DNA from: Candidatus Heimdallarchaeota archaeon
GTDB lineage: Archaea > Asgardarchaeota > Heimdallarchaeia > Hodarchaeales > Hodarchaeaceae
Assembly (NCBI GenBank): GCA_019057635.1
Contig: DXJL01000125.1
Coordinates: 1-14,136, forward strand
DNA: 14,136 bases
Direction: 5' to 3'
Numbering within the stretch: position 1 is the first letter of the stretch; each line of letters starts with the position of its first letter. Under the pieces are notes generated by a model that was not told the DNA's origin, searched no databases, and saw only the letters and a program-made list of their open reading frames with translations. Both the position numbers and the translations under genes were made by a program. Shown piece by piece: positions 1 to 14,136 of this stretch.

Positions 1-1
1 G

Positions 2-412
2 AAGACCCTAGTTTTAGGGGCTTTTGCGGGGATTATCCCTGATATTGATGGGATTTGGGCAATAATTAATGTTGAGACAGGAAATCCGTCACTAGACTAT
101 CTCTTTTCTCATCGTGGGTTCTGGCATAACCCAATTCTTCCACTTTTATTTGCAATTACTTCAGGGGTATACTTAGTGATAATATTCCTTCCTCGGCGGG
201 AAATGGCAAAAGATCACTTTTGGTCACTATCACCTATAGCTCTTGCATGGTTCTCTCACTTAATTCTCGATTTTGGATTTACTGCTACAAATGATATTCC
301 CGCATTAATCTTTGAATTACCATTACTTGCTGTTTACATGCTAGATCAAATATCAGCGTTCGCTATTTCCGCTCTTCTCGGATATATCCTTTGGAAACAA
401 GTTGGTTCGTAA
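2..412 (+). CDS. Membrane-bound metal-dependent hydrolase (YdjM/DUF457-like), 5'-truncated by the window edge
   Basis: The frame of the 176..412 ORF is open back to base 2: KTLVLGAFAGIIPDIDGIW...LFSHRGFWHNP...WFSHLILDF. It has the family motifs PDxD, HRGxxH and SHLxLD between hydrophobic segments. Confidence 0.8.
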   Translation, partial: KTLVLGAFAGIIPDIDGIWAIINVETGNPSLDYLFSHRGFWHNPILPLLFAITSGVYLVIIFLPRREMAKDHFWSLSPIALAWFSHLILDFGFTATNDIPALIFELPLLAVYMLDQISAFAISALLGYILWKQVGS

Positions 413-693
413 ATATATACCTAGAATTAAAAAATTCTCACGAATCAAGAATTAATTCAGTTTTTTTAACAAATACGAGAATACTCAACGTAAAGAGTAA
501 TTCAACAATTGGATAATTAATCCACAAATTCTTTAGTCTAAATGAGTTCAAATCAACAGAATGCCACAAAGAGAATATTTTAATTTCATTACTCACATAA
601 TGAAATGGGAAGAGGAAAACAATCACTTAGGATTTCAGCATTTGGAAGTTCTCAAGTACTCAATAAGTTTAGTCCATTAAAAATATTTATACG

Positions 694-735
694 AACGTCG
701 TCCATGGCTGGTTTAGATTGGAAAAGTATATGCTA
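694..735 (+). repeat. Intergenic motif copy 1 (class B left arm)
   Basis: AACGTCGTCCAT-GGCTGG-TTTAGATTGGAAAAGTATATGCTA, core at 706, directly abutting the IS left end. Confidence 0.9.
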
Positions 736-2356
736 GGGTGAGATGTGCGCGAAATTTTATTTTTCGTTGTTTTGACATTTCGGGGAAGAGTGGACTGTAA
801 TAATCCGACAATAACATGATTATTATTGAACAAGAGAGGTGAGGAGAACATTTGACCAAAAATGACCCTAACACTACTCTTGTTCGGTTATGGGGTGAGT
901 ATTACCTCTTTTTTAACTATTGTGTATGTCAGAAGCGAGTATTATAAACACTTGTACCAAAACGTCCTGTGGGATAGTTATTCACTGGAAAGAATACGAT
1001 TATTTTTTCAAAAGATTGATCCACTGTTAAAGCGGATGTATCCCATAGTGGACAAATTAAACAAGAAGAGGGGACGCCCAGTAACCAATAGATGCTTTCA
1101 ATTACGTTTTGTCATTTGGTGGAAATTTTTTGCTCCTGGACCACAAAAAAACGCGGTGGAAAGACTGAACAAGTCACCAGAACTCCAACAAATTCTGGAG
1201 GCGCCCGGAAATCCATATACCAGGGCAAGTCTCCGTCGGTTCCTCAAAGATGTGGGAGAAGAGGGATTCAGACGAATGGGTTTTTTACTTGCGGTGAAAT
1301 TGCTCAAGAAAGGGATTATTGATACCTCAAAAGTCGTGTTAGACTTTTTTCCAGTCTATTCGTATTTAAATAAGAGTAAGTGTCTAAAAATCCCAAAGTT
1401 CAATAAAAAATTAGCGAAGCAATTTTTTCAGGAATTAAGCCTGAACTACATCATTTCCAAATTTCCAATACCGCGTAGAAACTCAGCCCCATTAGTAGAC
1501 AAGTTGAAAGTCTGGATTCACCAGTATCTATGGGATATTCCCTCCAATCAACGCAATCACTATCATATATTTGGGAGAACCAATCGAAGGGAGGTACTTG
1601 GGCTTGAAAAAGGATGGAAGGCGGCGAAAACGTATCAAGATTTCTTAGATGCCTTGAAAGCCCTTCCCAACGCATCTGAGATCTAATATGTAATAGTGAC
1701 AGAGGTGGTGCGTGTACTTCGACATCTGGGAGTAACTCTTAAGAGTACTAAATATCAGCGTATAGAAGACCTTCGTTGCGTGTTCCATACTCCTCATCGT
1801 CTTAAAGATCCAATTATCACCTCAAATTATTGTGCAGCCAAAGATCAACATTTTATGGGACGAGGTGGATTGTTGGCAATAGTTCCTTCCTTAGGAATAC
1901 CACTATTCTTACAGGTAACTGCAAAGTACAAACAAAGTGAAGAATCAATTCGATCATTTCTAAAGTCGATGTCTCAACAGTATGGAGGACTTTTACGGGA
2001 GATAGAGGTATATGCGGATAGTGAGTTTGGTACCGAGGGAATTAAGGATGCGTTAAAGCGTTTACTTACGGCTACTCCCTATATCGATGTGTTTGCTCGG
2101 AGTGTCACACGATCAACATTAACTATTGAGCAAAAAAATATTCGTAAGACCGTGGAACGCGTGATTGCCCGTTTAGAAACCAATTTTCCCCTTGAACATC
2201 CTTCTGTTCTTGGAGACGACTCAGTAGCAATCCATACTCAGCTCTGCTTCCTTTGCGATTTGCTACTTGTTTCACATAACCTTTTAACAGGCAATCACTC
2301 TCACCCCCACTCCCTCTCATACATTCGGGGATAAAAGTTTTGAACACCTCTCACTC
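736..2356 (+). mobile_element. Insertion sequence of ~1.62 kb, IS4/IS5-like DDE type, with imperfect terminal inverted repeats
   Basis: Left end 736-761 is GGGTGAGATGTGCGCGAAATTTTATT. The reverse complement of right end 2331-2356 is GAGTGAGAGGTGTTCAAAACTTTTAT (18/26 identical, ungapped). The ends enclose the transposase frame. No clear target-site duplication. Confidence 0.75.
862..2334 (+). pseudogene. DDE transposase (~490 aa) interrupted by a single in-frame TAA at 1684-1686
   Basis: ORFs 862..1686 and 1696..2334 are in the same frame. Motifs are KKRGRP in the N-terminal region, VVLDFFPV (D1), VYADSEFG (D2) and RKTVERVIARL (R-x3-E, catalytic E), as in IS4/IS5 DDE_Tnp_1-type enzymes. Confidence 0.8.
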
Positions 2357-2704
2357 AGGTTTATATTAATTTACGAAATAAAAATGGAAATAATTGTTTC
2401 ATTCAAAACAACAGTACAAATTTTCTCTCAAAAGCAATCTCCATTGAGTAATAAATATAGATTTTTAAATATCTGAACAAAATCATCGAATCGAGGTCCA
2501 AATTGGTCAAATTCTAGAAATGCTTTGGCAAGTAAAGACAACAATTAGTAATAGAAACCAACATTCAATACTTGAAAAAGTTCTTTAATGGGCAAAAATT
2601 CACCACATATTTAAGTAGCAGACAAAAATGTCAATTTAAGTATCTGTACTAGGAATTAATCTTGTTCAATTGAGCTAAATAATTTAAAGATAGGAGTACA
2701 ACAA

Positions 2705-3748
2705 GTGAAACGTTGCGTTATATTAGGGACAGGGTTAATAGGACAGCAATTTGTACGGCTTTTAGATACACACCCATATTTTGAATTAACAGAAGTGGTT
2801 GCATCAGATAAATCTGAGGGTAAGTCGCTCAAGAGTAAATGGAACTTACCGTCATTTGAAATTCCAGATATGTTTGCTAATTTACAAATGAGTTCACTTC
2901 GTAATTTAGCCCCTAATAGTTATGATATAGTGTTCAGTGCACTCCCTGCATCAATAGCAAAAGAAATTGAGTTAGAAATAGCCCAGAATGGAAAACCAGT
3001 TTTCTCAAATGCTTCTGCACATCGCTATGAACCAAATGTTCCTATCTTAATACCTGAAATAAATGCTAAACATCTTGAGATCATTACACATCAAGATTCG
3101 TTTAATAATAATGGATTTATTGTCACAAACTCTAATTGTACCGTTTCTGGCCTCGCAATGCTATTAAATGAGATCAGACAAGTTCAACAAATTAAAAACG
3201 TTTATGTTAGTAGTTATCAGGCATTAAGTGGAGCAGGATTTGAAGGGCTTAAATCCATTCCTCGTGATCGGGTCATTCCGTTTATAGAAAATGAGGAAGA
3301 AAAGATTTCAATTGAAGTACGAAAAATTCTTGGGTCTGTTAATCATGACAGGATCGTTAATAATACAGAAATTGATGAAGTTTTAGCTACTTGTGCAAGA
3401 GTCCCAGTCATTGACGGTCATTTAGAAGCTGTTACAATAGAATTTAAGACGAAAATTGATCCAACGGCAATACTAGATCATTTAGAACATATTCGGAGTG
3501 ATCTCTCTTTACCAACAGCCCCGTCCAAACCGATTAAACTATTTAAAGATTTGGATCGTCCCCAGTCTACTTTAGATTTATACGATAAAACTGGAGGACG
3601 ATCAAGTGGCATGGTAGTGAGTATTAGCCCTATCAGATTTACTAAATATCATCTTAGATGTTTTTTATTAGTTCATAATACAATCCGGGGTGGAGCAGGA
3701 GGTTCTATTTTGAATGCTGAACTGGCATATTCAAGAGGATTTCTTTAA
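2705..3748 (+). CDS. asd: Aspartate-semialdehyde dehydrogenase (archaeal/fungal type)
   Basis: ILGTGLIGQ Rossmann motif, VFSALP, FSNASAHR, VPILIPEIN, catalytic NSNCT, YQALSGAG, RVPVIDGH, HNTIRGGAGGSILNAE. GTG start with AGGAG at 2692-2696. Confidence 0.97.
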   Translation: MKRCVILGTGLIGQQFVRLLDTHPYFELTEVVASDKSEGKSLKSKWNLPSFEIPDMFANLQMSSLRNLAPNSYDIVFSALPASIAKEIELEIAQNGKPVFSNASAHRYEPNVPILIPEINAKHLEIITHQDSFNNNGFIVTNSNCTVSGLAMLLNEIRQVQQIKNVYVSSYQALSGAGFEGLKSIPRDRVIPFIENEEEKISIEVRKILGSVNHDRIVNNTEIDEVLATCARVPVIDGHLEAVTIEFKTKIDPTAILDHLEHIRSDLSLPTAPSKPIKLFKDLDRPQSTLDLYDKTGGRSSGMVVSISPIRFTKYHLRCFLLVHNTIRGGAGGSILNAELAYSRGFL

Positions 3749-3798
3749 TACTCTCTTGATTGCCTAATCATCTGTAGAAATCAATTTTCCCTCCCCTG

Positions 3799-3825
3799 TT
3801 TTTTTTCTGATTATTTTTTTCTTTT
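3799..3825 (+). terminator. Oligo-T tracts, possible archaeal-type terminator of asd
   Basis: TTTTTTTTCTGATTATTTTTTTCTTTT in the gap between the convergent asd and lysC genes. Confidence 0.35.
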
Positions 3826-3836
3826 GACGCGTTTAA

Positions 3837-5243
3837 CTACTCTACTATGACCTTACTATGTGATGGTTCCATTATTCGTTTATGCAGTACTTCTAACCCT
3901 CTTTTTGCATCCTCCTTTCTTAGAACCATCGATAGATTTATTTCTGAGGCTCCTAGAACCATCATTAAAATTTTGATATTATTTTCTTCAAAAACCTCAA
4001 AAACCTGTCTAAGAACTAATGGGTTCTCACTAATACCACGGCCAACACAACATAGAATAGACCCTTTTATCTGGGTAATCATTGAAATATCCTTTCTTTC
4101 ACTTTCAGATTTAAATTCTTGGTTTAACTCATTGATTACTTTTGTTGCATCTTCAGAACGAAGAACAAAACCAATTTTTTGTTCTGCAGCAGATTGTGAG
4201 ATCATTAGTATATTGGCACCAACGCTGCGTGCACAATTAAAGGTACGAGCTGAAATTCCAGGAACACCAATCATTCCTTTTCCCAAAACATTAACTATCG
4301 AGATATTTGGTATAAGATTAATTACTTTTATGCCATTAGGTTTGGATTCTGATTTGATGAGAGTCCCAGGGTTCTCAGAATCAAATGTGTTTTTTATTCT
4401 AATTGGAATATGATTTTCAGCAGCTGGTAATATGGTCTTTGGATGAAGTACTTTTGCTCCATAATAGGACATTTCGAAAGCTTCTTCATAAGATAAATCC
4501 GTAATTTGTTCAGCAGTAGAGATCGATCGGGGATCAGTACTAAAGATTCCAGGAACATCTGTATAAATTACGATTTCTTTGACCTTAAGAAGCGCTCCAA
4601 GGATAGAAGCTGAATAATCGGATCCATTCCTACCTAAAGTAGTTGTAATATAATCTCTAGTTGAACCAATGAAACCTGTAATAACAGGAATAGTGTTTGT
4701 ATCCAAAATTGAATGTAAAGTATTTATTCTATTATTACTGACATCAAAATTAGGAGCTGCTTCCCCAAAATTATCGTCTGTGCAAATGAGATCCTCCGCA
4801 GATATGTATTTTGAGTGAATCTCTTTCGTATGCAGCATGGCATTAATTATTCTTGCAGAAAGTTTTTCCCCAAATGAAAGGATATAATCCCGAATCTTTA
4901 GACCTGATTCTCTTAAAATGATGGCTGATTTACATACGTCTTTAAGATTAACCACTTCTTCATTTAACTCAGTAAGTAATTCTGACTTTATTTCACCCTC
5001 AGGTATTAATTTATCAATGAAATCCAAATGAAGATTGAAAAATTCAAGTATGAGACTAAATACTTTCTGTGTATCCTTTTTAACTAGTAAATGGGAGATA
5101 ACCTCGAGTTTATCAGTGATTCCATTCATTGCAGAAATTACCACAATTGGATTATTATCCTGATAAGAGGAGATTATGTTTACTACTTTTTGAATACTTG
5201 ACGCGGTACTTACGGATGATCCACCAAACTTTAAAACATACAT
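3837..5243 (-). CDS. lysC: Aspartate kinase with two C-terminal ACT domains
   Basis: VLKFGGSSV, VVISAM, SFGEKLSA, TTLGRNGSDYSA, TDVPGIFSTDPR, YGAKVLHP. ACT motifs GMIGVPGISAR and GASEINLS. Confidence 0.96.
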   Translation of the reverse strand: MYVLKFGGSSVSTASSIQKVVNIISSYQDNNPIVVISAMNGITDKLEVISHLLVKKDTQKVFSLILEFFNLHLDFIDKLIPEGEIKSELLTELNEEVVNLKDVCKSAIILRESGLKIRDYILSFGEKLSARIINAMLHTKEIHSKYISAEDLICTDDNFGEAAPNFDVSNNRINTLHSILDTNTIPVITGFIGSTRDYITTTLGRNGSDYSASILGALLKVKEIVIYTDVPGIFSTDPRSISTAEQITDLSYEEAFEMSYYGAKVLHPKTILPAAENHIPIRIKNTFDSENPGTLIKSESKPNGIKVINLIPNISIVNVLGKGMIGVPGISARTFNCARSVGANILMISQSAAEQKIGFVLRSEDATKVINELNQEFKSESERKDISMITQIKGSILCCVGRGISENPLVLRQVFEVFEENNIKILMMVLGASEINLSMVLRKEDAKRGLEVLHKRIMEPSHSKVIVE

Positions 5244-5403
5244 GAAATGAAACCTCGAAGCAAATTAAAGTTTTAAACCGATATGTAAGTGCTTTTTAGC
5301 AATTTTACTGTTTCTTATAAAAGATTCACATTGAAGAAGTTGATTATTTTCAGAGATACTCCCACTTATCCTTGATTCAATCCTAGTAAAGAAGATTGAA
5401 TTC

Positions 5404-5450
5404 CGTAAAAGGCTGGTTTAGATAGGAAAAATATATACTGGGGTATATAC
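5404..5450 (+). repeat. Intergenic motif copy 2 (class A) with intact downstream palindrome
   Basis: CGTAAAA-GGCTGG-TTTAGATAGGAAAAA-TATATAC-TGGG-GTATATAC, core at 5411. Confidence 0.92.
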
Positions 5451-5714
5451 CTACAATTGAAAAAAACAAATTAGCAAATCAAACCTTTGTTAAATATTGA
5501 AAACATCGAATTTCTTTAAGAAGAGAAAAATGTGAACTTCTATTAATTACATAAAGGACTTTTGAAAGAAAAAATATTAAATTCTTTAGATACCTACCAT
5601 TTAATAAAACGAATAATAGACTCTTGTACCTATTCCAGAGAGGTTTCTCAAAATTCCGAATATAAAAATATAGTGATGGATAACCAACCAGATTCCAAGA
5701 AGGATATTAAGAAT

Positions 5715-6752
5715 ATGAAAGCGATTATGTTAACGAAATTAGGAGGACCTGATGTTTTAAAAGTTCACGATGTTCCAAAACCCACCATAAAGAATCCGAA
5801 TGATGTATTGGTCAAAATAAAGTTTTCAGGGATAAATTTCGCAGAGATACTGGCACGAAGAGGACTTTATAAGTGGGTTCCAGCAAGGAAGGGGTTTATT
5901 CTAGGGATGGAAGGAGCTGGTATTGTGGAAAAAGTTGGAACAGAGGTTGCTAATTTTAACGTAGGAGATCCAGTAATTGTAGTAAGAGGGTTTGGCTGTC
6001 ATGCTGAATATATCGTTCTAGAAGAGAAATATGTTCTTCCTGCAATTCCAAACTATACTTTAGAACAGAATGCTGCATTTACAGGGTCATTCATGACTGC
6101 CTATCTTGCACTAGTAAAGTTTGCTCGGGTTGAGTCAGGTGAGACGATTCTTGTACAAGCAGCAGCTGGAGCTTTGGGAACTGCAACCGTTAAACTAGCG
6201 AAAGCTCTCGGGTTAAAGGTTGCTGGTACAGCTAGTAATACAGAAAAAATCACCATGCTTAACAAAATGGGCATTAATTTAGCTATTAATTACTCTAAAG
6301 AAAACTTCAAAGAATCTATAATGGAATGGACTGATAACAAGGGAGTGAATGTTGTCTTAGAAAGTGTTGGAGGAGAAGTCTTCAGGGATTCTCTTCAATG
6401 TCTGTCTGCAATGGGAAGATTGATATTTGTCGGTCTAAGTAGTATTCGATTTAGCAAATTTAATCCATTGACATGGTGGTCCACATACAAATTAATTCCC
6501 AAGATTAGTTTGCTAGATATGTTAGGTAAATCTTACGGAATTCAAGCTTTCCATGCTGGACGATTACTTGATAATAATTACACAGAAATAAGAAAATCAT
6601 TTGACGATCTAGTAAATCTTGTGCAACAACATGAGATTTCACCGACAATTTCAAGAATTTTTCAACTGAATGAGATTGTGGAGGCTCACCGAATGATTGA
6701 ATCGAGAAATAACATTGGAAAAATACTCCTTAAGATAGGCAGGTCTTCCTAG
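5715..6752 (+). CDS. NADPH:quinone oxidoreductase-type MDR protein (zinc-independent, VAT-1-like)
   Basis: MKAIMLTKLGGPDVLKV, GINFAEILARRGLY, ILGMEGAG, LVQAAAGALG, SRNNIGKILL. The family-typical start is ATG 5715; ATG 5676 is an alternative, and the track's TTG 5562 looks over-extended. Confidence 0.9.
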   Translation: MKAIMLTKLGGPDVLKVHDVPKPTIKNPNDVLVKIKFSGINFAEILARRGLYKWVPARKGFILGMEGAGIVEKVGTEVANFNVGDPVIVVRGFGCHAEYIVLEEKYVLPAIPNYTLEQNAAFTGSFMTAYLALVKFARVESGETILVQAAAGALGTATVKLAKALGLKVAGTASNTEKITMLNKMGINLAINYSKENFKESIMEWTDNKGVNVVLESVGGEVFRDSLQCLSAMGRLIFVGLSSIRFSKFNPLTWWSTYKLIPKISLLDMLGKSYGIQAFHAGRLLDNNYTEIRKSFDDLVNLVQQHEISPTISRIFQLNEIVEAHRMIESRNNIGKILLKIGRSS

Positions 6753-6979
6753 TGAAGTAGGTTTTTACACCTATTATAGGTGGAGCATTGATTCAATATT
6801 TTCATTCTCAGACTCTTCCTACTCTGCTTACTGCTATTTTCTGTTTGACAATTCTCTTATGGCGGTGGTATATATCTACACCTCAATTTTCTTCAACGGT
6901 ACAAGTTACAACGACATAATATAAATAGTAGAATGATTAATTATAGATATTTAAGATCGTTAATGTATTTGCATTTCCC

Positions 6980-7019
6980 AACTTCGTAAAAGGCTGGTTT
7001 AAAATAAAAAAGTATTTAC
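6980..7019 (+). repeat. Intergenic motif copy 3 (class A)
   Basis: AACTTCGTAAAA-GGCTGG-TTTAAAATAAAAAAGTATTTAC, core at 6992, ending 4 bp from the nfi stop codon. Confidence 0.88.
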
Positions 7020-7023
7020 AAAA

Positions 7024-7734
7024 TCAATTGTATCTAAAATATTTCACAGTATCTCGAGTTAGTTTATCTGCTAATCTAATGGGCTCAGGTAAACGTTGAC
7101 GCGTATAGCGTGAGATAAGGGATGTTGCAGTCTGAATAGAGATGAGATGTCCAGGCGAAATATAAATTGGTTTGTAGATTACATTAGGAATCACTGCGGT
7201 TCCGATTTCTTGGTTTTTATACATAACAGGGGATATTTTATTTTCTAATAGGATATGCTCATCAACATTCCCTATTAAAAGTCGCTTGGCAACCCCTATG
7301 GTTGGTTTTTTTAGAGTAATTCCAAGATGAGAGGCAACACCCAGCTTGTAAGGATGAAGAATACCATTTCCATCAACCACAATAAGATCTGGTTTGTTTT
7401 GTAGTTTCTTATATGCTTCCACCAGACCTGGTGCCTCTCGGTAAGCTAGAAAGGTAGGAACATAGTCAATCTCTGGTGTGTAGATTTGGAACACATATTC
7501 TACCAATGTAAAATTAGGGACCTCTAGAACCACCATACCAGCACAAGCATCACCATTAGAAAAAAATGAAACATCACAACCCGCCACGAGGGAAATCCTT
7601 GATAGAGAAGGATGATCCTCGATAATCACTCTTTTTTGCAATGTTAATTGCTCTTTACGTAGATTTTTGAAGTGATCTACCAAATTCGGAGGAATATATT
7701 TTTCTATCCACGGTTCTAGTTCTATACACTCCAT
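7024..7734 (-). CDS. nfi: Endonuclease V (deoxyinosine 3'-endonuclease)
   Basis: VAGCDVSF, YVPTFLAYRE, VDGNGILHP, GVASHLG, PTIGVAK, PIYISPGH, RLPEPIRLAD. Confidence 0.96.
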   Translation of the reverse strand: MECIELEPWIEKYIPPNLVDHFKNLRKEQLTLQKRVIIEDHPSLSRISLVAGCDVSFFSNGDACAGMVVLEVPNFTLVEYVFQIYTPEIDYVPTFLAYREAPGLVEAYKKLQNKPDLIVVDGNGILHPYKLGVASHLGITLKKPTIGVAKRLLIGNVDEHILLENKISPVMYKNQEIGTAVIPNVIYKPIYISPGHLISIQTATSLISRYTRQRLPEPIRLADKLTRDTVKYFRYN

Positions 7735-7850
7735 GTTTTTTCTACTTAGATTTTAATCTTATAAGTAAATGTCTAAATTCCCAAGAATTAGGCTCATTTG
7801 ATCCACAAGTTTGTTCAAATACATATTTCAGTTTTCCTAATCTCGTACTC

Positions 7851-7899
7851 TGTCGTAAAAGGCTGGTTTAGATAGGAAAAATATATACTAATGTGTATA
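7851..7899 (+). repeat. Intergenic motif copy 4 (class A)
   Basis: TGTCGTAAAA-GGCTGG-TTTAGATAGGAAAAA-TATATAC-TAAT-GTGTATA. Bases 7854-7889 are identical to 5404-5439 (36 bp). Confidence 0.92.
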
Positions 7900-8080
7900 A
7901 GCAGATGAGTAGAATAAATCGTAATCTCTAGATAGACCATATGGGACATTTAGACAGGGTTATAGAATTTAGAGCTTATTTTCGGTGAACAGTTCAATTT
8001 CATCGCTGAAGGAATATTTACAGGCGTATTGATATATAAAGTTAAACGGATCTGAGCAATCAAAACTAAGGGTGAATGCG

Positions 8081-8872
8081 ATGAGAAATCCTGAAATTGC
8101 TTTAAATTCTGTTTTATATGAAAAAACAGACCTAATTGCTACCATTACTATTAATCGGCCTGATAAACGAAATGCTTTACGTATGGAAGAATTTGATAAG
8201 CTTATCAAATTTATTAAAGACGCTGACTCTGATGAATCTGTTCATGTCATTCACATCAATTCTGAGGGCGAAAAAGCGTTCTCTGCTGGATTGGATTTGA
8301 ATATGTTGCAGCAATTAGCGGCCTCTCCTGAAAATATTCCTCGTCTTCTTGAGTATGGATTTGGTTTAGTAAAAACGATGTTGCTAGCAAAAAAACCAAT
8401 TGTTGTGCAAATTCAAGGTCCTGCGGTTGCGTGGGGTGCAATTATATGTTTAGCTGCAGATTTTGTAATTGCAGGTGAAAATCCTAACACATTTCTTTCG
8501 CTCCCTGAAATTGATGTAGGATTGTTTCCCGCAACAGGAGCTCTAACCATGGCATTATTGAATTCCGGATTTAGACGCTCCAAAAGAATTCTTATGGTTC
8601 CAGAACGTCTATCCTTAGATGATGCCGTAGAATTAGGAATTATCACTCGTAGATGTCCTTTAACTAACCTCCCCGAGGACACGTTATCATTCTGTGAGGT
8701 TCTTGCCAAAAAACCTCAATCTATCCTTATTCCAATAAAAGCGTTGATAAATCGTTTTTCTTTAAAAGATCTCGATTATTATTTTACTAAGGAGACTGAA
8801 GCCTTTAATTTATCTATGGCTGGAGAAACAGAAAAATTTAACGAATTTATACGAATCCTATGGGAGAATTGA
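8081..8872 (+). CDS. Enoyl-CoA hydratase/isomerase (crotonase) family protein
   Basis: ATITINRPDKRNAL, AFSAGLDL, KPIVVQIQGPAV, AADFVIA, LPEIDVGLFP. ATG 8081 is preceded by GGGTGA; GTG 8072 is an alternative start. Confidence 0.92.
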   Translation: MRNPEIALNSVLYEKTDLIATITINRPDKRNALRMEEFDKLIKFIKDADSDESVHVIHINSEGEKAFSAGLDLNMLQQLAASPENIPRLLEYGFGLVKTMLLAKKPIVVQIQGPAVAWGAIICLAADFVIAGENPNTFLSLPEIDVGLFPATGALTMALLNSGFRRSKRILMVPERLSLDDAVELGIITRRCPLTNLPEDTLSFCEVLAKKPQSILIPIKALINRFSLKDLDYYFTKETEAFNLSMAGETEKFNEFIRILWEN

Positions 8873-8956
8873 TTTTATATTTAGATCTGTAAACGTATTT
8901 CAACTTCTGTCGGAATATGTAACTAAAATTCTACTAGAAAAAAGTGGAGACTTAAA

Positions 8957-9045
8957 TTCACCATTTTGAGACTAATAATAATTGCTTTCACATATAATGA
9001 AATACTATAGGATAAATCATCACGTACGTCGTCCGTGGTTGGTTT
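8957..9045 (+). repeat. 89-bp extended repeat ending in degenerate motif copy 5 (class B)
   Basis: Ungapped match to 12008-12096 (70/89 by hand count). Ends ACGTCGTCCGT-GGTTGG-TTT, core at 9037. Confidence 0.85.
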
Positions 9046-9342
9046 TATTTTTAGGAAATTGCCTTTTTGATGGAATAGAAAGGATTTTTCTAGGAATTTT
9101 CCAGTTAGGAGTCATAGATCGTTGGAATGAAAGATTTCACATAGGAATTTACCAAACGAGTGTCATAAAATAGAGTATTGATCATAATTAGAGAATTGAA
9201 TCCACACCTATCAGAAATGAATTAATTAGTAATGGCTTGAAAAAGTTATAAATGAAGTAGTTTTAATCAATTAAATCGAAATTGCTTCTCTTGATGACAG
9301 AAGAAAGCAAGGAATTTATCAGATAAGGGAGACATAACAAAA

Positions 9343-11847
9343 TTGAAAGTCTCTGAAATTAAGGAATTGATCCAAAGAGGGAATTACTATCAAGCCTTAG
9401 AAGCGATAGAGGATTTAAGCCCAAGTGATAAACTAAATGGTTTAATTCTTAAAAGCAGAATTTTTGAGCAGAAGGGAGAGGTAGAAAAATCACTTATAAT
9501 TGCTGAGCAAGCATTAAAAATGAGTACAACTCTAAGTGAGAAGCTACAGCAATTACAAGCAGAAATTTGTCGTGGTTTCGGATTTCTTGCTCTACAAAAA
9601 TTGACAAGATTAGAAGAAACTATTCTAAGAGGAGAAGCACTCTTACTTTCTTTAGTAAACGAATCAACATTAGATCTAAAGAAAAGTGAAGCAGATCTCA
9701 AATATCTTAAGGGTTTCTTATTTTTTATGAAAATTGAAAGAGATATTGCACAAGATTATCTTAATGAGAGTTTGGCAATCAGGAAAGAAATTATTGATGA
9801 ACAAGGAATTATAGAATCATATACAGCCCTTGGAATGCTTTATTTATTATTATATAAAAAACCAGTGACTGCTATTGACAATTTTAAAAGAGCAATGGCT
9901 TTTATGGAGAGTTTGGGGACTAAAACAATTTTTACATATTCATTGAGACAAATAATGAGTTATGACGAGGTACTCGCCCTTATATCAGTACCAGAAGACC
10001 AACAAGCCTTTTTACCTGATTATACACGGAATATCTGTCCTGAAGTTTGGAAAATTACAAATCAGTTTCAACAAAAATTAAGTCAAAATTTGCTAAGAGT
10101 ACCATCTGAACTAAAGAAGGAATTTCTTCTCGCTTTAGATAGTTACCAGAAATACAATGAATTGTTTAATATATTCACATCTTTTTCACCAATTTATCAA
10201 GATGTTGGATGGCATCTTCATGTCAAAGGTGATCTTGTCCGTGCTTTACACTTTTATAAAAAGAGTCTAGAACTCTTAAAGAATATAGAAGAGAATAAAC
10301 CAGAAACAGGACGTCTTTTAAGCACTCTGGGAACCATTTATGCTGATTTAGGGAAGTTAGATCTTGCTCTTGAATATTTCAAGAGTAGTATAAATTTAAA
10401 TCGTGAAATAGACTGTAAAATAGCAATTGCTTATAATTTGAAGGAAATTGCTAAAATAAATTCATTGAAAGGAGAACTAGATCTAGCTATGGATAATATT
10501 AATCAAAGTTTTAACTTATTCTTGGTATCTGACTGGCGAGATGGCATAAATCGATGCTATTTGGTGTTAGGGGTCATTTGGAAGCATATGGGAAAACTAG
10601 ATCTAGCTAGAAGTTTTTTAGAAAAAGGGTGGGTGCAGCGTAATCAATATGGTGGGATTTTTCCCCTTTTTGATTCGTATTATCTCTATCATCTGATTTT
10701 ACTTACTCAAGAACGAAATGATGCAGAGAACGCAGTTCATTATCTTAGTCAATTGCACAAAATACAACAGAGTCATGAATCTAAGACGATTACCTTAAGA
10801 TATCACTTTTGTGAAGCTATTGTTCTTATGATGAGCAATAGGACAATTGACAAATTCCTCGCTCAACACAAATTACGTGAAATTCTAGAAAAACACACAG
10901 AAAGGTTACTCTCTACTAATCCTATATTCATTATGGTGATGTTAAACCTTTGCGAGTTATTGATGCTGGAATTAAAAGTCTCTAGCAAACAAGAAGAAAT
11001 ATTTCAGGAAATTTCAGCATGGATTGGAATATGTCGACTACAAGCAGAATATTTCAATCTACTACCACTACTTGTTTCTTCATTTATTATTGAATCTAGA
11101 GTAAATATGGTCAAGAATGACTTGAAACATGCTCAAATACTTCTTAATAAAGCACAAATAATTGCAGAAGAGAAAAAGTTAGGAAATTTGATAGAAAAAG
11201 TGAAGAAAGAAAAAAAAACACTGGAATTGTATGAATGGGGAAGTCGTAAAGAAGATTCCATTCAAGAGCGTATAACGCAAGTTAACTTGGAAGAATATTT
11301 CAATGAAGCGAAGAAATTACCTCAAACTTGGGTACAGAGTACCACGATGCAACCATTACCCGAAGATCCTGTTATGTTCGTTATAGTTACTGATGGGGGA
11401 TTAACTCTTTTCACAAGAATATTTGACCAAAATTACTCTAAAAAAGTTGGTTTGATCGGACAAATCTTAGTAGCTTTCGAAATGTTTAGTCAAGAAGTTT
11501 TTTCAGCCTCAGCTGATCATGTGGTAATGGGAGATCTGCGGTTGGTTATGCAGACGCGGGGTAATTTAAGATTTGCATATGTTTTTAGAGGAGAATCCTA
11601 TCCAGCTATCAGTAAACTAATTCAATTAATAAATAAACTTCAGTTAAGACGTGATTTATGGGAAAAATTAGAGGATATCATTATTACAGGTGTTGCATTA
11701 AGTTCAGGTGAGAAAGCTGAAATAAATGGTGCTCTTAATGATATTATTTTTTCAACTAGCGCTAACAACACTGGATGGTTCCACAGTCCGTATCTCAAAT
11801 ATACTGAAGAAGCCCGACAATTAGTTGAAACTTGGGGAACAAAATGA
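9343..11847 (+). CDS. Large tetratricopeptide-repeat protein with a putative C-terminal longin-like domain (Asgard-type architecture)
   Basis: TPR consensus segments such as LSTLGTIYADLGKLDLALEYFKSSI, VGWHLHVKGDLVRALHFYKKSL and LGVIWKHMGKLDLARSFLEKG. The C-terminal alpha/beta domain begins PEDPVMFVIVTDGGLTLFTRIF. TTG start preceded by GGGGAG. Confidence 0.85.
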   Translation: MKVSEIKELIQRGNYYQALEAIEDLSPSDKLNGLILKSRIFEQKGEVEKSLIIAEQALKMSTTLSEKLQQLQAEICRGFGFLALQKLTRLEETILRGEALLLSLVNESTLDLKKSEADLKYLKGFLFFMKIERDIAQDYLNESLAIRKEIIDEQGIIESYTALGMLYLLLYKKPVTAIDNFKRAMAFMESLGTKTIFTYSLRQIMSYDEVLALISVPEDQQAFLPDYTRNICPEVWKITNQFQQKLSQNLLRVPSELKKEFLLALDSYQKYNELFNIFTSFSPIYQDVGWHLHVKGDLVRALHFYKKSLELLKNIEENKPETGRLLSTLGTIYADLGKLDLALEYFKSSINLNREIDCKIAIAYNLKEIAKINSLKGELDLAMDNINQSFNLFLVSDWRDGINRCYLVLGVIWKHMGKLDLARSFLEKGWVQRNQYGGIFPLFDSYYLYHLILLTQERNDAENAVHYLSQLHKIQQSHESKTITLRYHFCEAIVLMMSNRTIDKFLAQHKLREILEKHTERLLSTNPIFIMVMLNLCELLMLELKVSSKQEEIFQEISAWIGICRLQAEYFNLLPLLVSSFIIESRVNMVKNDLKHAQILLNKAQIIAEEKKLGNLIEKVKKEKKTLELYEWGSRKEDSIQERITQVNLEEYFNEAKKLPQTWVQSTTMQPLPEDPVMFVIVTDGGLTLFTRIFDQNYSKKVGLIGQILVAFEMFSQEVFSASADHVVMGDLRLVMQTRGNLRFAYVFRGESYPAISKLIQLINKLQLRRDLWEKLEDIIITGVALSSGEKAEINGALNDIIFSTSANNTGWFHSPYLKYTEEARQLVETWGTK

Positions 11848-12007
11848 TCACCTAACCTTTTGTGCTGGTTAACGTTGGTTTTATCCGTTTTTTAATTAAA
11901 ATTTATTTAATCTAATATCAATAAACGTTGGATAAGCGACATTGGTGCTCAAGAAGTATTAATCTAGTTCAAAAGATAATGGACTTATTCCTTTAAAAAA
12001 ATCTAGG

Positions 12008-12117
12008 TTCACCATTTTGAAACCTAGTATAATTGCATTCACACATAATGAATTGCTAAAGGATATATTAGTGCAAACGTCGTCCATGGCTGGTTTAGAT
12101 AAGGATAGTATATACTT
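12008..12117 (+). repeat. Extended repeat plus motif copy 6 (class B)
   Basis: TTCACCATTTTGA...CACATAATGAA...AACGTCGTCCAT-GGCTGG-TTTAGATAAGGATAGTATATACTT. Bases 12076-12100 are identical to 694-718 (25 bp). Confidence 0.9.
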
Positions 12118-12147
12118 ATAGTGGGGAAAAAGAAAATCAGACTGTAA

Positions 12148-12543
12148 TCACCAAGATTGGGTATTAACTTGAGGAATTTTTTCAAAATGACGAGTGTTCT
12201 TTGTTACTACTGTAGAAATTCCTCGTGAAATCATGGTGCCAGCAATTAGAATATCAGCTCCCCCTATCATTTCGCCTTTGGCTCGTAAATCTGCTTCTAT
12301 TATAGCAGATCTAGTTGCAGCAGCTAAATCAAAATCTAGTATAACTATCCTACTTAAAAGGTTATTGCGAACTTTCAGTTCCATTTCCGAGTTTGTTGCT
12401 CCAAAAGCTCCTACTAAGAATTCATGAGCTACGATTGTATTTGTTACATGAGGACCTTCTTTGTCCAAATCATCTAAAAGTGTTTTAGCTGGAGCATGTT
12501 TTCTTATAACATCAATTAGAAATGAAGTATCTAGAAACTTCAT
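12148..12543 (-). CDS. vapC: PIN-domain toxin, VapC family
   Basis: MKFLDTSFLID, HEFLVG, IGGADILIAG, VVTKNTRHF. The likely start is ATG at 12543, 4 bp after the antitoxin stop; the track's 12630 start overlaps the antitoxin. Confidence 0.93.
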   Translation of the reverse strand: MKFLDTSFLIDVIRKHAPAKTLLDDLDKEGPHVTNTIVAHEFLVGAFGATNSEMELKVRNNLLSRIVILDFDLAAATRSAIIEADLRAKGEMIGGADILIAGTMISRGISTVVTKNTRHFEKIPQVNTQSW

Positions 12544-12547
12544 GGTT

Positions 12548-12766
12548 TTATCGTCCTTGGAAAAAATTCTGACGTCTCTGTTCAATTTCACTAAGTTCTT
12601 CTTCATACTCACTCTTAGATTTAGTTCCAACTCCCCAATAATCTTTTAAATTTCCAAATAAACCAGAAATCCGTAATATTGTGTCTGAAAAAGACTCTCC
12701 TTCCAATTGTAATGATTTTAATGCGTGATAAGCTGCTTCCTTCACTGTGATTGTTTTCGATACCAT
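12548..12766 (-). CDS. vapB: Archaeal VapB-type antitoxin (DUF217-like)
   Basis: KTITVKEAAYHALKSLQLEGESFSDTILRI motif. 72 aa, directly upstream of the PIN toxin. Confidence 0.9.
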   Translation of the reverse strand: MVSKTITVKEAAYHALKSLQLEGESFSDTILRISGLFGNLKDYWGVGTKSKSEYEEELSEIEQRRQNFFQGR

Positions 12767-12796
12767 GTTTATGTGTATGTTTAAACTTATATAAAA
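12764..12796 (-). promoter_or_regulatory. TATA box and hexamer repeats of the first vapBC operon
   Basis: The minus strand reads TTTTATATAA-GTTT-AAACAT-ACACAT-AAACAT-G. The TATA box lies ~21-30 bp upstream of the ATG, which suggests a leaderless transcript. Confidence 0.5.
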
Positions 12797-12815
12797 GATT
12801 TTCTAGATTATTATC

Positions 12816-12857
12816 AACTCCGTCAAAGGCTGGTTTAGATTACAAAAGTATATACTA
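12816..12857 (+). repeat. Intergenic motif copy 7 (class A variant)
   Basis: AACTCCGTCAAA-GGCTGG-TTTAGATTACAAAAGTATATACTA, core at 12828. Confidence 0.9.
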
Positions 12858-12889
12858 GGGTGAGATGTGGGCGAAATTTTATTTTTCGT
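12858..12889 (+). mobile_element. Solo left-end remnant of the same IS
   Basis: 31/32 identical to 736-767 (GGGTGAGATGTGSGCGAAATTTTATTTTTCGT). No transposase or right end follows it. Confidence 0.75.
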
Positions 12890-12915
12890 AACAAAATTTT
12901 GATTTGGGAAGATTA

Positions 12916-12937
12916 TTTATATATGCATATGCATATA
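12916..12937 (+). promoter_or_regulatory. TATA box overlapped by an 18-bp perfect palindrome (probable operator of the second vapBC)
   Basis: TTTATATA at 12916-12923, TATATGCATATGCATATA at 12920-12937, and an RBS-like GGGTGA at 12945-12950. Confidence 0.55.
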
Positions 12938-12956
12938 AAAAGATGGGTGAACAATA

Positions 12957-13199
12957 ATGGCAAAAAACATTGCTGTTTCAAATGAGATCTACAAAGTATT
13001 GAATCAGCTCAAATTAGGAAATGAAAGTTTTTCTGACGTGATAAAGAGGTTATTACCTCCAAAATCGATGTTGTCAGATATAGCCGGAACTAAAACGTTC
13101 AGCTATCAAGAATGGAGTGAAATTCAAAGTGCTTTCCAAGATCAGAGAGCATTGGATATTGAACGAACGAAAAAACTATTAGAAAAAATGGTTGATTAA
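12957..13199 (+). CDS. vapB: Archaeal VapB-type antitoxin (DUF217-like)
   Basis: KNIAVSNEIYKVLNQLKLGNESFSDVIKRLL motif. Coupled to the downstream PIN gene. Confidence 0.9.
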   Translation: MAKNIAVSNEIYKVLNQLKLGNESFSDVIKRLLPPKSMLSDIAGTKTFSYQEWSEIQSAFQDQRALDIERTKKLLEKMVD

Positions 13200-13611
13200 T
13201 GTGTGGTTAGCAGATACGACTTTTATCATTGATTTGGTCAATAATGACGAAGGAGCAGTGAAAATGGCGCAAATAATAGATAGAATGCACTCAGTCGTTT
13301 TCATATCAGCTATTACGATCCAGGAATATCTAAGAGGTATTTATTATTTATTTGGAAATAAACTAAATCAAATCGACAAAAAATTGTCAAAAGCTGAAGG
13401 CGATCTAGCCCGATTCAGTGGACTAGAGCTAAATTATAATGTAGCAAAAGCTGCTGCTAAGATCGACGCTGATCTAACTCGCAAAGGAGAACAGATAGGT
13501 TATGCTGACGTTTTAATAGGAGCAACAGCTCAATTCTATCAATTGACAATTTTAACACGAAATGATAAACACTTCCAAAAAATTCCTGATTTAAAAATTG
13601 ATATCTATTAA
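13192..13611 (+). CDS. vapC: PIN-domain toxin, VapC family
   Basis: WLADTTFIIDL, SAITIQEYLRG, IGYADVLIGATA, ILTRNDKHF. Start is either TTG 13192 or GTG 13201. Confidence 0.93.
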   Translation: MINVWLADTTFIIDLVNNDEGAVKMAQIIDRMHSVVFISAITIQEYLRGIYYLFGNKLNQIDKKLSKAEGDLARFSGLELNYNVAKAAAKIDADLTRKGEQIGYADVLIGATAQFYQLTILTRNDKHFQKIPDLKIDIY

Positions 13612-13631
13612 ATGGTTCAAATATCTGTATT

Positions 13632-13669
13632 TGTCGTAAAAGGCTGGATTAGATAGGAAAAGTATATAC
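13632..13669 (+). repeat. Intergenic motif copy 8 (class A)
   Basis: TGTCGTAAAA-GGCTGG-ATTAGATAGGAAAAGTATATAC, core at 13642. Confidence 0.92.
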
Positions 13670-13857
13670 ATATTGGTAATTCTAGTAATGTGCCACAGGA
13701 ATCACAATGAAAGGCTGTTAAAGGGTTCGGGGCATGTTTAACAGTATATACTTAGGTATATAAATGGTCTATCTCTTTTTTTATACTCAGACGGAACAAA
13801 GATTGCAATGATATCTTGTTCCTTGTTATTTCAAACAATTATAACGGTGAAAAAAAA

Positions 13858-14061
13858 GTGACAACTGAAGAAATTGGTAAAAACGTCAAAGTAACCATTG
13901 ATGAGAATATTTTAACAATAAGGATTGATTTAACTAAGACATTTGGAAAGTCTGGTAGTGGTAAATCGACCATTATTGCTACTACATCAGGTAATAAGGG
14001 AATTGGTAAAGAAGATATTAAATTAGGATTAAATTGCTATACTCCTGTAAAGAACGATTAA
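13858..14061 (+). CDS. Small hypothetical protein (~67 aa, beta-rich)
   Basis: GTG 13858 is preceded by GGTGA. Sequence KNVKVTIDENILTIRIDLTKTFGKSGSGKSTIIATTSGN...LGLNCY resembles, from recollection only, a small uncharacterised family; not verified. Confidence 0.75.
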   Translation: MTTEEIGKNVKVTIDENILTIRIDLTKTFGKSGSGKSTIIATTSGNKGIGKEDIKLGLNCYTPVKND

Positions 14062-14090
14062 TATTAACCCTCTCTCTTTCTTTTTTCGCT

Positions 14091-14126
14091 AACTCCGTAA
14101 AAGGCTGGTTTAGAAAAGGAAAAAAT
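14091..14126 (+). repeat. Intergenic motif copy 9 (class A)
   Basis: AACTCCGTAAAA-GGCTGG-TTTAGAAAAGGAAAAAAT, core at 14103. Confidence 0.9.
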
Positions 14127-14136
14127 TTCTCGTAAA

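Follow-up and report, generated by a model that had tools for sequence, protein, structure and literature searches.

Certain insertion sequences (ISs) are known for landing in palindromes or in short recombination sites. The IS1111-attC group, for instance, inserts at the attC sites of integrons. IS1272, a staphylococcal member of the IS1182 family, inserts into inverted repeats whose centres measure 4-6 nt; in the model proposed for it one pathway duplicates the loop alone, and the same report, citing the review by Siguier et al., notes that some IS1182 members target palindromes (PMC5678879). The 'pdif hunters' of the IS1202 family (ISAjo2 and relatives, Acinetobacter) seek sites between swappable gene modules (PMC10132070), while ISs aimed at repetitive extragenic palindromic (REP) sequences (IS1397, ISKpn1, ISPpu9/10 and ISRm22) come from five families and insert into short repeated palindromes (PMC1525189). 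Here, we describe an archaeal IS of comparable habit. It lies in a 14,136-bp contig (C97), analysed in its entirety and called the window below, of a Candidatus Heimdallarchaeota genome (G000; 3.19 Mb, 214 contigs, 36% G+C), where it interrupts one site of an array of gene cassettes, and it belongs to a clade that appears to insert into the centre of one particular palindrome.

With IS1272 and the IS1182 family, the element has in common a single long DDE_Tnp_1-type transposase (~490 aa), an inverted-repeat target and the geometry of a loop-only duplication, and its flanks place it in palindromes, as is stated for some members of that family. It differs in that its transposase reaches 21 bits in the IS1182 profile against a cut-off of 270, and in its handling of the target: the published targets of IS1272 have no sequence in common and are replaced without duplication (PMC5678879), whereas the present IS enters one defined 8+4+8 sequence in an Asgard host, keeps its arms and gains 4 nt. 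The pdif hunters likewise look for short recombination sites of modular arrays and make a small target duplication, yet their insertions lie 5 bp from the XerC arm and in a single orientation, their ends are TGT...ACA, their transposase is TnsB-like and their duplications measure 5 bp (PMC10132070). The present IS sits at the core centre in both orientations, ends in GTG...CAC and encodes a DDE_Tnp_1 enzyme; Pfam scans of the window open reading frames (ORFs) and of the family members found no rve or TnsB-type domain, and ends, central two-way insertion and domain content all place it outside the IS1202 family. Specialisation on the recombination sites of cassette arrays is a trait shared with the IS1111-attC group of the IS110 family, whose members use an RNA-guided DEDD transposase and leave no target duplication (PMC11187229). 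Neither a DEDD domain nor a long non-coding region was found in our element, in which Pfam detects DDE_Tnp_1 only and which gains 4 nt on insertion, so that it does not belong there either. Finally, the REP-targeting ISs are DDE elements, including IS5 and IS4 families, with palindromic targets, and the transposases of IS1397 and ISKpn1 are credited with the specificity; their targets are bacterial REP sequences and not cassette-array cores, and IS1397 and ISKpn1 are IS3-family elements (PMC1525189). The present IS is thus set apart by its transposase lineage, archaeal host, single 8+4+8 target and central two-way insertion. Literature searches returned no description of it or its target, and the searched passages of a survey of archaeal ISs (PMC13343696) contain no palindrome or target-site term. 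Palindrome targeting as such is already in print for the IS1182 family; the element itself is newly described.

The site that the IS occupies is one of a family of ~50 nt, consisting of an arm (consensus AACTCCGTAAAAGGCTGGTTTAGATTACAAAA), the octamer GTATATAC, four free bases and a second GTATATAC that is present in roughly half of the copies. Sites along a contig are co-oriented, regardless of the direction of the intervening genes. A strict site pattern matched in 18 of the 22 genomes of the genus (not in G001, G007, G016 and G017), with 0 matches for its reversed control; in the present genome the site is confined to C97, C142 and C207, with arrays extending over 694-14136 of the window, C142:11120-18188 and C207:2360-8135. 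Among 98 sites sampled from 29 stretches, the left half-site is present with at most one mismatch in 73 and the right one with at most two in 52, and the centre measures 4 nt in 52/52 sites with both half-sites. Intact palindromes with such a centre, as the original prediction had noticed, stand at two places in the window and in near-perfect form at a third (Table 1). Genome-wide, GTATATAC occurs 56 times. Pairs of half-sites 4 nt apart (at most two mismatches) occupy eight places, whereas each of the spacers 2, 3, 5, 6 and 8 nt gives 0 to 4; an arm was recognised at four of the eight and, by eye, part of one at a fifth, and another of the eight belongs to the array on the window contig. Since the palindrome is rare and mainly an array-site core, the IS is in practice aimed at the array.

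The cassettes carry accessory cargo: VapBC and HepT/MNT toxin-antitoxin pairs, a CbiMNQO transporter, endonuclease V, oxidoreductases, TPR proteins, and asd with an aspartate kinase gene. This cargo, the common orientation of the sites, the loss of conservation just past the centre or right half-site, and the recurrence of cassettes in differing neighbourhoods suggest that the array sites are recombination sites. Recombinase families were absent from the Pfam matches of 86 ORFs, 18 of them without any Pfam match, from the three array contigs here and array-site stretches in six other genomes, and the same contigs and stretches contain no integron integrase. Integron attC sites are imperfect palindromes of 57-141 nt with paired R''/L'' and L'/R' boxes and an R' box of the form GTTRRRY; the present sites, an 8+4+8 palindrome beside a one-sided, non-palindromic 32-nt arm, are of another kind.

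Within the window, the IS sits at the very centre of such a palindrome, as had been predicted, the occupied site reading arm, GTATATGC, TAGG, IS, TCAG, GTTTATAT. Because the array site is split, two cassettes are joined. Homology among the IS copies begins at GTGAGATGTGCGCG and ends at CACCTCTCAC; the element has GTG...CAC ends and inverted repeats that are identical in their first 6 bases and match in 13 of the first 17 (end comparison). Assembly pieces of public run X5 start exactly at 738. The limits originally given, 736 and 2356, each lie 2 nt outside the true ends, 738 and 2354, which leaves intact the associated claim that excision restores a 4-nt centre, since with either limits the cut removes the IS plus 4 nt. 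Copies L002, L087 and L096 have the same length of 1617 bp and share about 90-92% identity with the window IS, values for which the window copy was taken one base short.

Table 1 Coordinates of the insertion sequence, its target site and related features in the window
Feature	Position	Strand	Remarks
Insertion sequence	738..2354	+	1617 bp; ends set by loss of homology among copies
Terminal inverted repeats of the IS, imperfect	GTGAGATGTGCGCGAAA (from 738) and partner ending CACCTCTCAC (to 2354)	+	
Conserved array-site arm (694-725) and left half-site GTATATGC (726-733)	694..733	+	Aligned with 98 sites
Left 4-nt centre TAGG	734..737	+	Commonest centre of intact sites (13/52 sites with both half-sites)
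Right 4-nt centre TCAG	2355..2358	+	Differs from left centre TAGG
Right half-site GTTTATAT, degenerate	2359..2366	+	2 mismatches to GTATATAC
Transposase pseudogene	862..2334	+	Single 490-codon frame broken by TAA at 1684-1686; ORFs 862-1686 and 1696-2334 in frame
Second array site: arm, GTATATAC (12848-12855), centre TAGG (12856-12859)	12816..12859	+	BLAST and pattern match
Solo IS left end	12860..12889	+	30 nt, 1 difference from 738-767; same position in the second site
Intact unoccupied palindromic core ATATATAC-TGGG-GTATATAC	5431..5450	.	Comparison; DNA hairpin -3.1 kcal/mol
Near-perfect palindrome ATATATAC-TAAT-GTGTATAA	7881..7900		
Palindrome GTATATAC-TTAG-GTATATAA	13744..13763		

To see where other copies had landed, junctions were gathered from the 22 genus genomes, one metagenome contig scan and contigs of public runs, yielding copies from seven related genomes and six metagenome loci plus one extra right junction from a public-run contig. 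The metagenome scan listed 49 loci, of which six are this IS (L087, L096, L107, L113, L123 and L126); the other 43 share an 18-nt pattern only and were dropped. By tblastn, the transposase is present in L087, L096, L123 and L126 alone among the metagenome loci. Four of 17 left junctions (L050, L091, L115 and L132) showed the pattern with no IS behind it and were likewise set aside, leaving 13, and right-end matches were limited to at most two mismatches with adjoining IS sequence because a three-mismatch pattern equalled its reversed control. At all 13 distinct left junctions, and at 8 of the 10 distinct right junctions, GTATATAC (at most one mismatch) stands at a distance of exactly 4 nt from the end of the IS. 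Seven of these eight come from the nine right junctions in genomes and metagenome loci, where the window and a nested copy have two mismatches; the tenth, in a contig of run X2, continues with CAAA, GTATATAC and the arm as reverse complement. In this genome an octamer as close to GTATATAC is met at 3.8e-4 of positions, which excludes chance as the source of the flank rule. Retrieval and alignment of further copies, the check proposed with the original prediction, thus placed them at the same motif.

The arm stands to the left of the IS at both window sites and in G002:C22, is degenerate but on the same side in L096, L052 and L126, and stands to the right and inverted in L087 and the X2 contig. 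The target is therefore the symmetrical core, which the IS enters in either orientation. This refines the prediction that the IS targets array sites: the flank rule supports it, and the part that is recognised is the 8+4+8 core, read either way, and not the whole asymmetric site. IS DNA occurs in 8 of the 22 genomes, as against array sites in 18; as arrays exist without the IS, the palindromes were not made by the element.

Two side observations concern these loci. A second type of arm, CGTTGGYWAGGTTAWGAAAA, precedes GTATATAC in L096, L052, L126 and G002:C45:20190-20260, in the last of which a single half-site follows. Eleven metagenome loci (L085, L099, L105, L111, L112, L115, L116, L121, L124, L130 and L132) hold another repeat, whose first 18 nt agree with those of the IS (GTGAGATATGCGCGAAAT or a one-base variant) and which then diverges into ~20 nt of TTCG-type sequence, usually ending in GGGGT; within the DNA available at these loci it shows no transposase similarity.

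Intact sites have a centre of 4 nt, and all four complete IS copies have 4 nt on each side; 4 nt are therefore gained on insertion. We conclude, with a probability of roughly 80%, that the close clade (at least 75% DNA identity) inserts sequence-specifically into the 4-nt centre of GTATATAC-N4-GTATATAC, in either orientation, most likely through a 4-bp staggered cut that duplicates the centre. In the mechanism that we envisage, a DDE transposase would bind the inverted repeats of the IS and, as a dimer, recognise the two GTATATAC half-sites; the IS ends would be joined to phosphates 4 bp apart across the centre, which repair would then duplicate. Recognition of sequence is favoured over recognition of a cruciform because the half-site sequence is strictly kept at the junctions and the hairpin that the palindrome could form as single-stranded DNA is weak (-3.1 to -4.7 kcal/mol). 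The transposase itself probably reads both half-sites, and landing at array sites may offer a 'safe haven' in which genes are spared.

Several observations weigh against this conclusion. A right junction in G003:C131 lacks the half-site and is a true exception (AGAA followed by CTAAACAA, with 4 mismatches). Relatives at 62% and 53% protein identity have no GTATATAC flanks, so that the specificity must belong to one clade. Ten junctions are known from one flank only, and placement in an array site is not assignable there. An empty allele, which the original prediction had suggested looking for, was found for none of the occupied sites in the 22 genus genomes or the run contigs, and contigs that skip the IS are absent from runs X1, X2, X3 and X5, the one listed joint (1544 to 2329, X3) lying within the element. 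Four candidates for such an allele were rejected. C207 matches window 1-488 (96%) and 2564-3047 (89%) with other DNA between, and in G002:C84 the asd block stands behind a different gene. For L096, the right-flank homologues of G021 and G001 begin at a distance of 63-71 nt from the junction, and G002:C45 is a paralogue and not an empty allele, because it shares only 40 nt with L096. The centres themselves also speak against a simple duplication: they differ in the window (TAGG versus TCAG), in L087 (CTAG versus CACG) and in L002 (G003:C204:120752-122368; AATT versus CAGG), and a perfect 4-bp duplication is seen in one of three informative complete copies, L096. In L123, furthermore, an inverted L096-type IS is nested within another copy (reverse strand 2501-2766) at the pseudo-site TATAAAC-ACTT-GTACC, and the centre next to the nested IS is AATT where five other copies examined have ACTT.

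How much do the centres say about duplication? L096 has CAGG on both sides, and a relative at 53% protein identity (G005:C141) has TTAA on both. L002 is probably a mis-join or a recombinant, because it shares with L096 the right flank and an IS of 100% identity, whereas the left flanks differ, that of L096 being found at the end of G003:C11 (5931-5983). Random pairs of site centres are identical with a probability of 0.08 and agree in their outer two bases with one of 0.27, so the single perfect duplication is a modest argument, and little can be read into the matching outer bases of the two imperfect cases. That no clear target duplication is visible, as originally noted, is accurate for the window copy, although duplication of the 4-nt centre does seem to be the habit of the family.

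For the unlike centres three readings remain, namely flank exchange when two IS copies recombine (an event that within an array would remove the intervening cassettes as well), decay, and carry-over of a donor centre. In the last case, the IS would leave its donor with 4-nt overhangs and take the donor centre along to its next site, such that one flank would be the target's and the other the donor's. There is a parallel in piggyBac, which leaves its donor site with TTAA 4-nt overhangs. The L123 copy favours carry-over, with AATT where the target had ACTT and AATT beside the same IS variant elsewhere in the population, as the left-junction centre of G003:C204; the window and L087 would fit as well. 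We nevertheless consider carry-over unlikely. If true, the IS would be a prokaryotic DDE element whose target spans 20 bp and which integrates seamlessly by matching overhangs.

Other explanations question the junctions, or who reads the site. The contig might join the flanks of two separate IS copies, an artefact to which a metagenome-assembled genome of 214 contigs is open and which the several-fold higher depth of the IS over its flanks in runs X1 and X5, the unlike left and right centres, and the resemblance of G003:C204 to such a mis-join would all suit. The full-length IS was assembled only once in this genome, however, and contigs of run X1, probably the source sample, bridge both window junctions (437-766 and 2311-2759), the right one being bridged also by a run X2 contig from another study (2329-2539, 1 difference). 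Even with flanks from two loci each junction would obey the flank rule, and we regard a mis-join as quite improbable. A more radical proposal is that the GTATATAC-N4 units belong to the IS itself as its outer ends, i.e. long inverted repeats with a free spacer, and that the array palindromes are unrelated or are IS footprints. Such units do flank every close copy on both sides, and G002:C45, with its arm and single GTATATAC followed by an L096-like flank, could be taken in this sense had it not proved a paralogue with only 40 nt shared. Yet palindromes with a 4-nt centre are found at 52 of 98 sites, also in array-bearing genomes with no IS match, the conserved arm runs on into the left half-site without a break, the 4 nt vary between copies otherwise 97-99% identical, and the nested L123 copy uses a pseudo-site of its host IS. 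These facts leave the proposal with hardly any likelihood.

As a variant of insertion into the palindrome centre, the transposase may be drawn to a protein bound there, either an array recombinase or TBP/TFB, with the IS entering a bent or opened centre. GTATATAC, which follows an A-rich stretch, resembles a TATA box, and half-sites strictly kept despite a weak hairpin call for a dimeric reader of double-stranded DNA that need not be the transposase. There is also a precedent in the IS1202-family elements beside pdif sites, for which an interaction with XerC has been proposed (PMC10132070). Against this stand the absence of recombinase genes near the arrays (three contigs here, six other genomes) and the REP-targeting IS1397 and ISKpn1, whose specificity is credited to the transposases themselves (PMC1525189); recruitment by another protein seems unlikely. 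The transposase could be dispensed with altogether if a host site-specific recombinase integrated an IS circle, with joined ends ...TCTCAC-N4-GTGAGA..., at the core ...TATAC-N4-GTATA..., the centres then being overlaps that are free to differ. The 4+4 geometry and the unlike centres of the window and L087 would accord with conservative recombination across mismatched overlaps, and joined ends and core have AC-N4-GT in common; this likeness amounts to two bases per side only, though, and the element encodes a conserved DDE transposase between typical inverted repeats. TTAA is plainly duplicated in a relative whose flanks are different, the public-run contigs contain no circle junction, and no recombinase is known for the array sites, which makes this route very unlikely. 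We retain, as the most likely reading, sequence-specific insertion by the element's own transposase, as outlined above.

The transposase gene of the window copy is dead, because a TAA replaces the codon for a family-invariant glutamate: the stop aligns to Glu-287 of the intact protein, invariant in a 24-member family alignment, and L002, L087 and L096 have GAA at this codon position. D173 and D398, invariant in the family, and the nearly invariant E444 are all kept, and a relative in G003 retains an open frame of 504 aa. With its nonsense codon, degenerate right half-site and unlike centres, the window copy is old and inactive. Pfam detects only DDE_Tnp_1 (PF01609), for which the C-terminal ORF scores 23.3 bits (cut-off 23) and which matches 16 of the 24 family members. 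The NCBIfam IS1182 model (NF033551) is the commonest weak match, found in 19 of 24 members with a best E of 9.2e-10, but falls far below its cut-off of 270 for both the window protein (16.8 bits) and an intact relative, P0001 (21.4 bits); the IS5 model NF033580 likewise stays under its cut-off (13.8 versus 110 bits). Further weak matches concern the IS5 models NF033580, NF033581 and NF033578 (10, 5 and 4 of 24 members), ISNCY (14/24) and IS982 (6/24). An N-terminal DUF772 (InsH-type) domain is a feature of the IS1182 family, and PF05598 (DUF772) is matched in 1 of 24 members (E 7.5e-4); a short target duplication, typically of 4 bp, is a feature of the IS5 family. Judged by these profiles, the transposase represents a diverged IS5/IS1182-like DDE lineage below every curated family cut-off. 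The initial label 'IS4/IS5-like' is apt in a broad sense, given DDE_Tnp_1 and the weak IS1182 and IS5 matches. A profile of the transposase family matched no solved structure, and the window has no Rfam or tRNA matches. The 72 homologues are unnamed or 'hypothetical', and the few with organism names belong mostly to Hodarch-, Heimdall- and Hermodarchaeota; as far as searched, the lineage is confined to Hodarchaeales and other Asgard archaea.

A trace of a further insertion lies in the second array site (Table 1), where positions 12822-12889 match the IS-bearing site (91% over 68 nt, BLAST). The rest of the IS is missing there, and unrelated DNA follows the 30-nt remnant. Comparable solo IS ends of 30-110 nt are found in G002, G003, G005, G013 and G015.

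The arrays hold some additional features. In a subfamily of sites whose arm starts with ACGTCGTCCATGG, ~100 nt more are conserved upstream (window 571-735, 8960-9060 and 12010-12120; C207:3700-3800) and contain a small hairpin whose stem, compared by eye, varies yet pairs (ATTTCATTA/TAATGAAAT, TTTCA/TGAAA and ATTCA/TGAAT). In the array site at 13642, the arm and left half-site stand apart from the complete palindrome at 13744-13763 by ~70 nt of unassigned sequence (window 13662-13763); the insert (13670-13743) was rejected as a right-end remnant of the IS, since 7 of 300 shuffles reach its alignment score. A different repeated element, starting with GGGGTCAATCCTGTTGTCGGATAGATTGAC and present in 13 copies in the genome, occupies an array-site centre at the end of C142 (18121-18188). 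A target shared with the IS was rejected for it (site C142:18092), as the other 12 copies have no GTATATAC flanks and are preceded by ...TAGGG or ...AAGGG. Finally, the bin has two copies each of a YdjM-like gene and of the asd region, window 1-488 and 2564-3047 corresponding to C207:2939-3425 and 1-482 with 96% and 89% identity and different DNA between, reflecting either a duplication or a second strain.

The interest of the element lies mainly in its marking the active centre of an Asgard cassette system that had no prior characterisation. With single-base precision it pinpoints where the functional centre lies in the sites that partition Hodarchaeales genomes into gene cassettes, and as such is a second, independent sign that DNA is opened at the 4-nt centre between GTATATAC half-sites. 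The solo ends show array decay and cassette fusion, which is relevant to the annotation of these genomes. DDE insertion sequences that have a long, defined target are few, and the element adds an archaeal one, from the host group nearest to eukaryotes; a transposase reading a palindrome of ~20 bp may be a possible tool for site-directed insertion.

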